A stretch of DNA of 64,000 nt from Paracoccaceae bacterium (GTDB taxonomy: Bacteria > Pseudomonadota > Alphaproteobacteria > Rhodobacterales > Rhodobacteraceae): positions 2,494,255-2,558,254 of the forward strand of contig OZ241915.1 in assembly GCA_965203795.1 (NCBI GenBank), written 5' to 3'. The notes beneath the pieces were generated by a model. It made no database searches and was not told the DNA's origin. It was given only the letters and a program-made list of their open reading frames with translations. The position numbers and the translations under genes were made by a program. Positions 40,701 through 46,554 of the stretch are shown here, piece after piece. Each line of letters opens with the position of its first letter. Within the stretch, counting starts at the first letter, position 1.

Positions 40701-41053
40701 GGCAGCGCTGCAATTCGCCAAGCGATTTCCGAGGGGTCGCAAGGTAAGGCGGCGCGCGGCCGAGTTCAACCTGCGACGCGTACGTTCAGTGCAGCTTGCT
40801 GCGGCGCGGCCGCCGACCAAGACGGACGCGGCCCGGATCCGGCAAACGCGGCTTCCGAACGCAGCCAGACACTTGACATCCGACCCCCCCGTAGGGTGCG
40901 CGCGGCTTCCCGATGGCGCCGCCGCGGTTCGCGCGAACGCCGGAGCCCGTTCCGGACAGGGCGTCGGCGCGGCCCGGTGGCGGCAGGAGCATCGCCTTGC
41001 CCCTCCGCCGACGGCGCGAAGGGACGCTGAACCAGCACCGGAGGGGAACGCTC

Positions 41054-42839
41054 ATGGACACGAAACTGATCGCGGCTCTTGCATGCGGCGCGGCCTTGGC
41101 TCTCGGCGCCTGCTCCGGCGGCAACCCGGCGACGCCGGCGGCGCCCGATCCCGCAACGACCGATCCGGACGCGGACGGCAGGACGGCCGCGGAAAGGGCC
41201 TTCGACGACGCGCTTGCGGAAGCGCAGAGGGATCTGGCCGCCGCGCGGGAGCTGGTGGAAACCGCGGAGGGGCTCGCGATGGCCGCCGACACGGACGGGA
41301 AGCGGACGGCGGCGAAGGCGCTGGCCGCGCCTTCGGGCGACTTCGGCAGGATCGGCCGGGCGGCCATCCTGGTCGACGACGCGGAAGCCGCCCAGGCCGA
41401 TGACGAGACGAAGCTGCGCGCGGCCGAAGGCAGCACGGGATGGGCAGGATCGTCCGCCCTGGTCATAGGGAAGGAGCTTCTCCGGCCTGCGCCCGCGGTC
41501 GATGCGGTCCGCAGGCTGCGCCGGAACGCCGACGGCACCGACGCCGCGACCCTGCTGACGGCGGCAAAGGTCCCGGCGGTCATGTACGACGCCGACGAGA
41601 ACCAGATCGTGATGGCCGAAGGCCTGGGCAGCAGCGGCGACAGGCTGCGCATGCGGGGAGCCCCGGTCGTTGCCGCGGCCCCTACTCCGGAAACACCGTT
41701 TGATTACAGGCAGTTTCTGCTTGTTGGACCCTATTTGGCCCCGCATCCGTTTTTGGACCCCCATGGCGGCGGAAACAACGGCGCCGAGTCGAAACTTGTC
41801 GCCGGGCTGAGGATCACTCCAAGCGGGCTTGTCGTGGACATCGGCGGAAAAGGCGCGCCCGGCATCGATCTCAGACTTCCCGGCTTCTTCACCACGGCAT
41901 GGGTTCAGCCCGACGGATCGAACGGCGGATACGATCTGACGCTGGATTTCGGCCGCCCGTCGGCCTCGCCCGAGGGCAACGCCGAGCATTACTGGACCGC
42001 CGCGCTCATGCCGTCGCCGGAGCATCTGGAGGAGCAAGGCGCCCTGTTCAGGGACGGCGAGCGGACCGTTCCGGTGGGCGCCTACGCCGTGCGGCTGTCC
42101 AACCACGCCGGCCTGGACAGGAATCTCGAGGACCCGGACGATCCGGCGGCCTCCGCGGAGGACGACGTGAACCACTACCTGTCCTACGCTGCCTACGGGC
42201 ACATGGAGTTCAGGCACAGCCTCGACAACCAGACACTCCGCTCGCAGCGGACCTTCCCCTTCCATGTGGGCTACGACGCGTTCAAGGACGAGGCGGGCAA
42301 GAAGACCACGGACATCGCCGAAAGGATCAAAGGGACGTTCAAGGGCCGGACCATGGCCTCGCAAATTCCGGTTCCCGTCATGGGGGGGAGGCACCCGCCT
42401 GCTATTCACGGGCGACTACTATTTGAGGCTGCGGGGCAACGTGGAGCTGACCGCGACGATTTCCGGAACCGCCGCCGACAACAAGATCAGCGGCAAGATC
42501 ACGGACCTGGAGTCCTGGGACGGGAACGGGTTCTGGAAGAACTACGCCGCGATCACCGGCGATCTGGCGCTCCAGGAAACCGCCATCGCCGCCGCGGGAT
42601 CCTTCGCCGGCGTCGTCGACACCGCCTCCTTGCCGGCGTTCGCGGAGGGAGGCTACAAGGGGAACTTCTACGGACCGCCCGCCAGCTTGGAGGCGGCCGG
42701 CATCTGGTACCTTCAGGACGGCGTCAACGACGCCGCCAACACCGAGGCCCGGAACCTGTCAATCGTGGGCAGCTTCGGCGCGGCGCTGGTCCGCGACGAC
42801 GGCATCTGGGGCGTGGCGAAGCCCGCCGCCGGCAACTGA
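41054..42839 (+). pseudogene. Surface lipoprotein with a TbpB-like C-terminal beta-barrel; the frame is broken at a G7 tract (possibly phase-variable or a homopolymer sequencing error)
   Basis: Starts MDTKLIAALACGAALALGAC (lipobox) after GGAGGGGA. The N-terminal frame runs to 42380. The C-terminal part (GGGTRLLFTGDYYLRLRGNVELTATISG...GNFYGPPASLEAAGIWY...IVGSFGAA) is in the +1 frame from the G tract onward. Confidence 0.7.
42382..42388 (+). repeat. G7 homopolymer at the frameshift point
   Basis: Sequence is tGGGGGGGa. Removing one G, or adding two, joins the two halves of the lipoprotein ORF. Confidence 0.9.
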
Positions 42840-42868: not shown

Positions 42869-42895
42869 GCTGCCGCGCCTTCCCGGCGCGGCAGC
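42869..42895 (+). terminator. Putative rho-independent terminator
   Basis: GCTGCCGCGCC-ttccc-GGCGCGGCAGC, an 11-bp stem, followed by TCCTGTTTCC. It lies 30 nt after the lipoprotein stop. Confidence 0.5.
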
Positions 42896-45264: not shown

Positions 45265-46554
45265 ATGACGAAGCTGCAGCGGCTGCTGGACGAGATCGAG
45301 CAGAGGCGCGACGACCTTGTGCGGCTCACGTCGCAGCTGATTTCGATCCCCACGCTCAATCCTCCGGGCGCAAATTACCGCGAAATCTGCGAGTTCCTGC
45401 GGGCGCGGCTGGCCCGATCCGGGTTTTCAACGGAGCTCATCCGCGCCGAGGGAGCGATCGCCGACAGCGACAGGCATCCGAGATGGAACATCGTCGCGCG
45501 CAAGCAGGGGCGCGATCCCGGTGAGTGCGTCCATTTCAACTCGCACATCGACGTCGTCCAGGCGGGGCACGGGTGGACGCGCGATCCGTTCGTTCCGACC
45601 ATGGCCGACGGAAGGGTCTACGGGCGCGGAGCATGCGACATGAAGGGCGGGCTGGCAGCGTCGATCGTGGCCGCTGAGGCGTTCTCGGACCTCTTCCCGG
45701 AGTTCCGCGGCGCGATCGAGATATCAGGGACCGCCGACGAGGAATCGGGAGGATACGGCGGCGTGGCATGGCTGGCCGAGCGCGGGCATTTCTCGCCGGA
45801 ACGCGTCGACCATGTCGTGATCCCGGAGCCGCTGAACAAGAACCGGATCTGCCTCGGGCACCGGGGCGTGTGGTGGGCGGAGCTGGTGACCAAGGGAAGA
45901 ATCGCCCACGGCTCCATGCCGTTCCTCGGCAGCTGCGCTGTCCGGCACATGGGAGCGGTCGTCGCCGAGATCGAGCAGAATCTGGTGCCCGCACTCGCGC
46001 GAAGGCGGACGGAGATGCCCGTTGTGCCCGAAGGCGCGAGGCAGTCGACGATCAATCTGAACTCCATACACGGAGGGGAGCCGGAGCAGGACGAGGATTA
46101 CACCGGGCTCCCCGCGTCCTGCGTGCCCGACCGGTGCAGCCTCGTGATCGACCGGCGCTACCTCTTCGAGGAGGACGCCGACGGCGTGCGGGGCGAAATC
46201 GAGGCGATCCTGGACCGCGTCGCCGGCGCGCGGCCCGGGTTCGCGTTCGAATTGAACGAGCTGTTCAATGTGCCGCCGACGATGACCGGGCGCGACGCGC
46301 CTGTTTCGCGGGTCGTCGCCTCGGCGATAGAACAGGTTCTGGACGCCGCGCCGGAGTACGTGCTGTCGCCGGGAACCTACGACCAGAAGCATATCGACCG
46401 CATCGGCAGAATGAAGAACTGTATTGCCTACGGGCCGGGAATACTTGATCTTGCCCACCAGCCCGACGAATGGATCGGCATCGACGACATGGTCGACAGC
46501 GCGAAAGTCATGGCGCTGTCCTTGGCGGAACTGCTTGCTCCGCAAGGGGACTGA
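45265..46554 (+). CDS. M20-family deacylase (ArgE/DapE/ACY1 type)
   Basis: Starts MTKLQRLLDEIEQRRDDL and contains HIDVV, GRGACDMKGG and ADEESGG. Confidence 0.8.
   Translation: MTKLQRLLDEIEQRRDDLVRLTSQLISIPTLNPPGANYREICEFLRARLARSGFSTELIRAEGAIADSDRHPRWNIVARKQGRDPGECVHFNSHIDVVQAGHGWTRDPFVPTMADGRVYGRGACDMKGGLAASIVAAEAFSDLFPEFRGAIEISGTADEESGGYGGVAWLAERGHFSPERVDHVVIPEPLNKNRICLGHRGVWWAELVTKGRIAHGSMPFLGSCAVRHMGAVVAEIEQNLVPALARRRTEMPVVPEGARQSTINLNSIHGGEPEQDEDYTGLPASCVPDRCSLVIDRRYLFEEDADGVRGEIEAILDRVAGARPGFAFELNELFNVPPTMTGRDAPVSRVVASAIEQVLDAAPEYVLSPGTYDQKHIDRIGRMKNCIAYGPGILDLAHQPDEWIGIDDMVDSAKVMALSLAELLAPQGD

Follow-up and report, generated by a model that had tools for sequence, protein, structure and literature searches.

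The 64,000-nt window analysed here, a stretch of contig OZ241915.1 of an uncultured Paracoccaceae bacterium of marine type, contains a gene for a surface-type lipoprotein that is interrupted at a run of seven G residues (G7), with sdhCDAB and a threonine-aldolase-like gene as its neighbours. Coordinates given without a contig name are positions within this window, and all features of the lipoprotein gene lie on the + strand. The frame opening at ATG 41054 encodes a lipoprotein precursor, MDTKLIAALACGAALALGAC..., whose signal peptide (41054-41113) carries the lipobox LALGAC, and it is protein-like for 445 residues, up to ...IPVPVMGG. Judged from the translation and from an AlphaFold model of the intact ortholog P0004 (predicted local distance difference test score, pLDDT, 85.6), this N-terminal reading frame (41054-42388) would comprise a disordered linker, a three-helix bundle and a beta-rich middle domain. 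At the G7 tract (42382-42388) the window reads ...gtcATGGGGGGGAGGcacc..., i.e. GTC ATG GGG GGG AGG, and beyond it the frame from ATG 41054 continues as Arg-rich nonsense that stays open to 42982 (product P0003) because the DNA is 63% G+C. The coding sense is resumed in the +1 frame (42384-42839), which from 42384 specifies 151 residues, GGGTRLLFTGDYYLRLRGNVELTATISG...GNFYGP...IVGSFGAAL..., with alternating beta-strand-like segments and a stop codon at 42837-42839; modelled alone, this C-terminal part is predicted to form an eight-stranded beta-barrel (pLDDT 83.9). An earlier note on this DNA had described a lipoprotein frame and a barrel-like C-terminal frame that are offset by one and change at the G7 tract, and both the translation and the alignment with conspecific sequences agree with that description of a lipoprotein gene broken by one extra G.

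Searched against proteins, the N-terminal part matched the gene's own read-through product and two proteins of 612 aa, P0004 and P0005, both derived from ENA metagenome assemblies. Their genes are located on megabase contigs (L027 and L028) at the same chromosomal site, between sdhC and a beta-eliminating-lyase/threonine-aldolase-like gene. The window was compared with these two syntenic conspecific contigs in an 11.8-kb alignment, in which identity was about 99% outside one recombined stretch. Exactly three window-specific indels were found, and all of them lie in the interrupted gene or its promoter, which together make up about 17% of the aligned length. The first is in a promoter poly-C tract at 40884-40890, which is C7 in the window and C9 in both conspecifics. 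The second is the loss of 54 bp after 41304, between 10-bp direct repeats GACGGCGGCG. The third is the G tract itself, G7 in the window and G6 in L027 and L028, where the two frames are joined as ...PVMGGGTRLLF... in a single 612-aa frame. Given that this is the only indel within the 3' half of the gene, the match between the tract and the frame junction is not a chance impression. The expectation that either G6 or G9 would yield one 594-aa protein was correct for G6, while G9 would give 595 aa, and the intact relatives have 612 aa rather than 594 because the window copy lacks the 54 bp. Elsewhere in the alignment, around 50 clustered substitutions against both conspecific contigs were seen in an M20-peptidase gene at 45423-46410, with surroundings about 99.9% identical, and this cluster is a recombination tract.

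The deletion, with its junction at 41304/41305, is in frame and removes 18 residues, corresponding to residues 88-105 of the ortholog and thus to most of helix 2 (81-106) of the predicted three-helix bundle. The deleted segment was present in 73/73 aligned relatives and includes an invariant Ala94 as well as several residues that are at least 90% conserved. Only two window-specific substitutions were found in the gene, both of them 3' of the frameshift and both non-synonymous; one is a G>A change at 42438 that replaces Asp by Asn in the first barrel strand (RGDVEL to RGNVEL), at a position occupied by Asp in 48 of the 49 relatives in which the motif was found. With these further private lesions (the 54-bp deletion, the Asp to Asn replacement and the shortening of the promoter tract from C9 to C7) the window copy looks silenced and decaying. 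Further disabling mutations were what the earlier note had regarded as the mark of a plain pseudogene, and they occur here in the window copy itself.

The interrupted gene is a member of a large paralogous family. By tblastn and a hidden Markov model (HMM) of the C-terminal domain, 24 further full-length paralogs were identified in the 3.96-Mb genome, each with both parts in one frame, which gives a family of about 25 genes. The lipobox signal peptide is shared with most paralogs and is near-identical in about 18 of them. Two short open reading frames (ORFs) of 188 and 273 aa carry the barrel domain of the family alone (G000:C1:2314299-2314862 and 3353369-3354187, respectively), and the 188-aa ORF looks like a truncated remnant of a family gene. 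Searches detected the family in each of the three species of the genus (30-40 matches per species) and gave no match in any of the 28 other genomes searched, which belong to the same taxonomic family, order and class. No ortholog was present at the window site in the sister species; in G001 the place between sdhC and the aldolase gene is taken by an unrelated ATPase-like gene. In the sister species, one family gene (L036 571-1449; G002:C1 ~1064724-1065602) is interrupted at about residue 330 by a transposase gene of the IS4/5 type (DDE_Tnp_1, DUF4096), and G001 has a similarly split copy.

The predicted structure of the intact ortholog, based on an alignment of 73 sequences (pLDDT 85.6 as above, predicted template modelling score 0.77), places the three-helix bundle at residues 45-146 after the disordered linker, the beta-rich domain at 168-460 and the C-terminal barrel at 475-608. 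Such an architecture would fit the published definition of the cargo of Slam outer-membrane proteins, namely a lipobox, a handle domain and an eight-stranded barrel (PMC5449769), and membership in the TbpB family proper is not established by it. The proposal that the protein is TbpB-like thus held for the lipobox and the predicted barrel, but profile searches matched the TbpB/Slam-substrate fold only below threshold, and structure searches did not recover it. The C-terminal part of the window gene matched TbpB_B_D (PF01298) at 19.7 bits (E 1.3e-3; cut-off 26), and FHBP_C (14.5 bits against 28.1) and the NCBIfam model slam_lipo (16.9 against 80) also touched it below their cut-offs. Weak TbpB_B_D matches were obtained for only 9/73 relatives. 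In a six-frame search of the genome there were 11 sub-threshold matches, of which 8 were in the family (best 24.8 bits), and none in 14 control genomes; this concentration within the family and absence from the controls suggests remote homology. A profile search of PDB sequences matched only the signal peptide and coiled-coil noise. Foldseek comparison of the whole model and of the barrel alone with the PDB gave no match at E <= 1e-3 and no TbpB-type chain among the top 50, the best matches being the eight-stranded barrels of avidin and streptavidin (TM score 0.4-0.5).

The genome was also examined for the partners that a protein of this kind might have, as the earlier note had suggested. One Slam homologue is encoded, a 501-aa ORF with TPR and SlipAM domains (PF04575, about 50 bits; cut-off 22), and its gene adjoins no family gene. 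A TonB-dependent partner could not be detected: the receptor barrel PF00593 had no match in the genome, which is 98% complete, whereas the control genomes do match. The lack of this receptor barrel makes a function of the TbpB/TbpA type, and with it a TbpB-like role in iron piracy, unlikely.

The regions upstream of the family genes were compared next to the coding sequences. In the window gene, a -35-like hexamer TTGACA (40873-40878), the C7 tract (40884-40890, ending 163 nt before the ATG) and a -10-like hexamer TAGGGT (40892-40897), the last assigned from its position and its conservation among paralogs, form a putative promoter in which 13 nt separate the two hexamers. It is followed by a long conserved leader (40898-41053), which upstream-region comparison showed to be shared with paralogs within a cassette of promoter, leader and signal peptide; an Rfam search of the leader and gene returned no match. 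A conserved motif, (T/G)GACATCCG...C(n)G TA(T/G)(A/G)GG, is found upstream of 10 family genes, and in the main subfamily the run inside it is C6-C10, flanked by the -35-like and -10-like boxes of the motif. The distance from the end of the tract to the ATG is exactly 174 nt in eight paralogs. In a second subfamily, G9-G13 immediately precedes TA-rich boxes. In total, 16/23 family genes have a run of at least 6 at the putative promoter position (C6-C10 or G9-G13). G/C runs in the genome show an odd length distribution, with 26 runs of 7 nt, 8 of 8 nt, 16 of 9 nt and 9 longer still, and 13 of the 33 runs of at least 8 fall 126-176 nt upstream of family start codons. A scan of JGI metagenomes with a promoter pattern was uninformative, given that the pattern was too loose and all 120 hits were chance matches lacking a poly-C run.

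The same arrangement is seen in the sister species, where a C10-C13 tract at four of the eight loci is preceded by TGGACA or TTGACG and followed by TAGAAT, TACGAT or TAAATG; the spacers of the three loci with TGGACA measure 18-19 nt, ahead of good -10 boxes. Taking the window genome and the sister genome G002 together, TTGACA or TGGACA stands upstream of the tract and TAGGGT, TATAGG, TAGAAT or TACGAT downstream, with spacers of 17-19 nt in one cassette type and 13-15 nt in the type to which the window gene belongs. Tract length differed between conspecific assemblies in 5/9 orthologous promoters, by 1 to 7 nt and with flanks 94-100% identical (C7/C9/C9 for the window gene, C6/C10/C9, C9/C8, C9/C14 with 7 nt added in total, and C7/C8). 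The four other orthologous promoters were unchanged in tract length, and one gained a C by substitution. One paralog with a coding sequence 97-99.7% identical between assemblies (L038 6501-8351 and L051 275-2112 against G000:C1:3785940-3787946) has a swapped cassette type, TGGACA...TATAGA in the window genome and TTGACA...TAGGGT in the two other assemblies. Together with the mosaic cassette of L027, this swap suggests that cassettes are exchanged between copies.

The reading that we favour, with a probability of roughly 0.6, is that the window copy is a silenced and decaying paralog in which the G7 frameshift is incidental, and that the family is switched at its promoter tracts. The family would then consist of about 25 genus-restricted, surface-type lipoproteins, each with a lipobox, a three-helix bundle, a beta-rich domain and a C-terminal eight-stranded barrel, probably displayed by the single Slam/type-11 secretion outer-membrane protein of the genome. 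Individual members would most likely be switched by slipped-strand changes in the promoter poly-C tract (poly-G in one subfamily), set between the -35-like and -10-like boxes within a shared cassette that may also move between copies. In the window copy the promoter tract would have shrunk from C9 to C7, 54 bp of a conserved helix would have been lost, and one G would have been gained in a short G6 run, cutting the lipoprotein part from the barrel that is presumed to be needed for export. The extra G would thus be a slippage-type mutation that is revertible in principle and not a dedicated switch. The promoter tracts are the likely phase-variation device of the family, as read from their position and their length differences between strains. 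The phase-variation idea of the earlier note is improbable at the coding G7 tract and fits much better at these promoter tracts, which it had not remarked on. A wider version of this reading is that the whole genus is coated by about 25 lipoproteins, each switched by promoter slippage and reshuffled by cassette exchange, and all exported by one unlinked Slam/type 11 secretion system (T11SS) without a TonB-dependent receptor, and that these are also the missing divergent cargo of the T11SS of marine Rhodobacteraceae type (PMC12282271); this version we put forward tentatively, as a proposal somewhat short of even odds.

Several observations weigh against the favoured reading. In the cassette type of the window gene, TTGACA and TAGGGT are separated by just 13 nt at C7 and, even at C9, by no more than 15 nt. 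The hexamers may have been assigned wrongly, or C9 may correspond to an off state. A scan for the sigma-70 consensus called no canonical promoter site at the window gene. Runs of exactly nine C are also present in other genera of Paracoccaceae, at 0-62 per genome, and tract abundance alone is therefore not special, which weakens the homopolymer census as proof of contingency loci. In long-read metagenome assemblies the length calls of long homopolymers can be off by one. Slam genes are also present in 10/28 relatives that lack the family, and the dependence of the family on Slam is suggested by co-presence. Finally, the 54-bp deletion is in frame, and the harm attributed to it is deduced from conservation. 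With regard to the nine-base runs, family-level genomes (G045, G047, G051 and others) contain exact nine-C/G runs, up to 62 in one genome and mostly as GCCCCCCCCCG, and their frequency could be a wider feature of Paracoccaceae or an artefact of some assemblies.

The most serious competing explanation is that the extra G is a homopolymer error of the assembly and that the true sequence is G6 with the frame intact. Relatives of the genome are long-read metagenome bins (as seen from contig names such as ctg394272_58.88x_l and from the labelling of G002 as a metagenome-assembled genome), homopolymer indels are the commonest error of such data, and a 3x contig from another sample has a probable 1-nt error in a paralog. 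The frequency of such errors in the present genome can be judged from a census of homopolymer-associated frame changes in the strongly coding stretches that were covered, in which the window G7 was the only clear case at a G/C run, the other candidates being gene boundaries or insertion sequence (IS) copies with the geometry of programmed frameshifting. This indicated that the assembly is not error-prone at runs of 6-7 nt. Given in addition a genome completeness of 98% and three other strain-specific changes in the same gene that are impossible as homopolymer errors, an assembly error is an unlikely explanation, though one to be taken seriously. Broken paralog fragments in other assemblies (P0065/P0081, on the 3x contig, and P0126/P0127) were not counted as evidence; their breaks are at short runs instead of long homopolymers, and they look like low-coverage errors.

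A second alternative is the one put forward in the earlier note, that the G6/G7 run is a dedicated translational phase-variation switch kept by selection and turned on and off reversibly by slippage. The frame breaks exactly at the run, the near-identical conspecific alleles differ by one G, being intact at G6 (L027 and L028) and broken at G7, and Gly-Gly is spelt GGG-GGA in the intact alleles where the paralogs use GGC; other slippage-prone tracts are also clearly present in the genome. While the intact G6 alleles agree with the proposed poly-G ON/OFF switch, the tract is not a feature of the family. The site lies in an indel-rich loop between two conserved blocks, and in a comparison with the seven closest paralogs none had a G run there. 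No G/C run of at least 8 was found in any family ORF, and nine paralogs have in-frame runs of 6-7 (G6, G7, C6 or C7), which are scattered over unrelated sites. G/C tracts are usually hypermutable only when they are longer than 6-7 nt, as in the contingency loci of Neisseria, Campylobacter and Haemophilus, and the run in the window gene is below this length in a genome that encodes both MutS and MutL. A G6 revertant would moreover still lack the conserved helix 2 and still have Asn in place of the conserved Asp, and its promoter is altered as well. Taken together, these points make a dedicated coding switch improbable, and more so than an assembly error. A scan of JGI metagenomes for the G-tract region gave no match.

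That the frameshift is bypassed in expression, with transcriptional slippage or ribosomal frameshifting at the G run giving some full-length protein, is very improbable: homopolymer runs can make RNA polymerase slip, an effect well documented for the long A/T runs of endosymbionts and of IS elements, and about 14 IS copies with A7/A8 frameshift sites are present in the genome, but the known cases involve A/T runs, mostly of at least 9, no stimulatory structure is evident near the G7 tract (the sole hairpin called there, 42396-42414, is a weak terminator-like match at chance rate) and the other lesions speak against selection for the product. The A7/A8 (or T7/T8) sites, e.g. at G000:C1 358469, 663949, 1313848, 2610671 and 3749745, have an identical frame geometry: the frame that enters the run reaches a stop codon 23 or 62 nt beyond it, and the frame used downstream is already open some 200 nt or more ahead of the run. 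The sites resemble multiple copies of an IS that carries a programmed -1 frameshift site.

If the window copy is a decaying paralog of a promoter-switched family, its closest mechanistic counterparts are the genes with promoter-spacer homopolymer phase variation, such as porA (poly-G) and opc (poly-C) of Neisseria meningitidis and the fim genes (poly-C) of Bordetella. As in these genes, a G/C homopolymer is positioned between -35-like and -10-like boxes of a surface-protein gene, and its strain-variable length alters the hexamer spacing. In contrast to them, the putative design is repeated before about 16 paralogs in an uncultured alphaproteobacterium, and in the cassette type of the window gene the two boxes seem too close together (15 nt at C9 and 13 nt at C7). 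The organization as a family resembles that of the vlp genes of Mycoplasma hyorhinis, a variable lipoprotein family with a poly-A tract in each vlp promoter. In both cases a multigene set of surface lipoproteins has a homopolymer of its own for every gene within a shared promoter, leader and signal-peptide cassette, so that combinatorial on/off expression would be possible. The present family differs in that its bacterium is Gram-negative, having an outer membrane and a Slam-type exporter, and not a wall-less Mollicute, that its tracts consist of C or G rather than A, and that no repeat-driven size variation was observed in the coding region. Coding poly-G genes such as hpuA of Neisseria are comparable in that a one-base change of a G run within the ORF decides whether a full-length lipoprotein is made, but there about 8 or more G residues are conserved as a tract, whereas the 6-7 G residues here are unique to one paralog that has other lesions.

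With the known Slam cargo (TbpB, LbpB, HpuA and fHbp; PMC5449769, PMC12282271) the family shares the lipobox, a variable N-terminal part, a beta-rich domain and an eight-stranded barrel with an ending of the GxFYGP...GSFGA type, and as in Slam-cargo systems a DUF560/SlipAM outer-membrane protein is encoded in the genome. It departs from them in its HMM scores, which are under all curated cut-offs, and in the lack of TbpB-type barrels among the Foldseek matches, as well as in having an unlinked Slam gene where this is usually adjacent, no TonB-dependent receptor found, and one Slam for about 25 cargo genes. In a 2025 survey the Slam-like (T11SS) proteins of marine Rhodobacteraceae were rarely accompanied by recognisable cargo nearby, with about 0.21 cargo genes per outer-membrane protein (PMC12282271). 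The family described here amounts to about 25 unlinked candidate cargo genes beside one Slam-like protein, with barrels just under the detection thresholds of such surveys, and if confirmed would provide a concrete T11SS cargo family to test.

Homopolymer-driven phase variation is textbook knowledge for a few host-adapted pathogens, and promoter-tract switching is known as a mechanism; it is the lineage that is unusual. A limited literature search found no description of homopolymer phase variation in Alphaproteobacteria or in marine or symbiotic Paracoccaceae. Confirmation would mean that stochastic surface variation is used outside the classical pathogens, and the alphaproteobacterium would then possess a variable surface system similar to Vlp of Mycoplasma. 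The G7 frameshift is by itself ordinary, one broken copy of a large and fast-turning gene family.

Apart from the interrupted gene and its family, a few minor features were recorded. A GC-rich hairpin 3' of the stop codon (42869-42895) was read from the sequence as a probable terminator stem; its T run is weak and it was not called by the terminator scan. Further C9-C11 and G8-G9 runs lie directly before TA-rich -10-like boxes ahead of genes without a Pfam match (for example G000:C1 3360-3368, 1608538-1608571, 1611688-1611696, 2622087-2622096, 2971220-2971229 and 3231525-3231535, including one divergent C9/G8 pair 17 nt apart), and the set of apparent tract-bearing promoters is wider than the lipoprotein family. 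Within the window, an in-frame G9 on the gene strand (30718-30726) is located in a gene for an exported caspase-ankyrin protein (minus strand, start 30991), at about codons 89-91 (...AASRGGADV...) and just before the YAGHG catalytic motif. Given its length within an ORF, this run is a stronger candidate than the lipoprotein-gene G7 for an on/off switch of translation. Outside the window, a C11 run (G11 on the gene strand; G000:C1:2837222-2837232, L060 323-333) lies some 20 codons from the 3' end of a low-GC ORF of 753 aa with the domains of a Type ISP restriction-modification coupler, a methylase and a C-terminal specificity domain, and this ORF may be a phase-variable restriction-modification gene.

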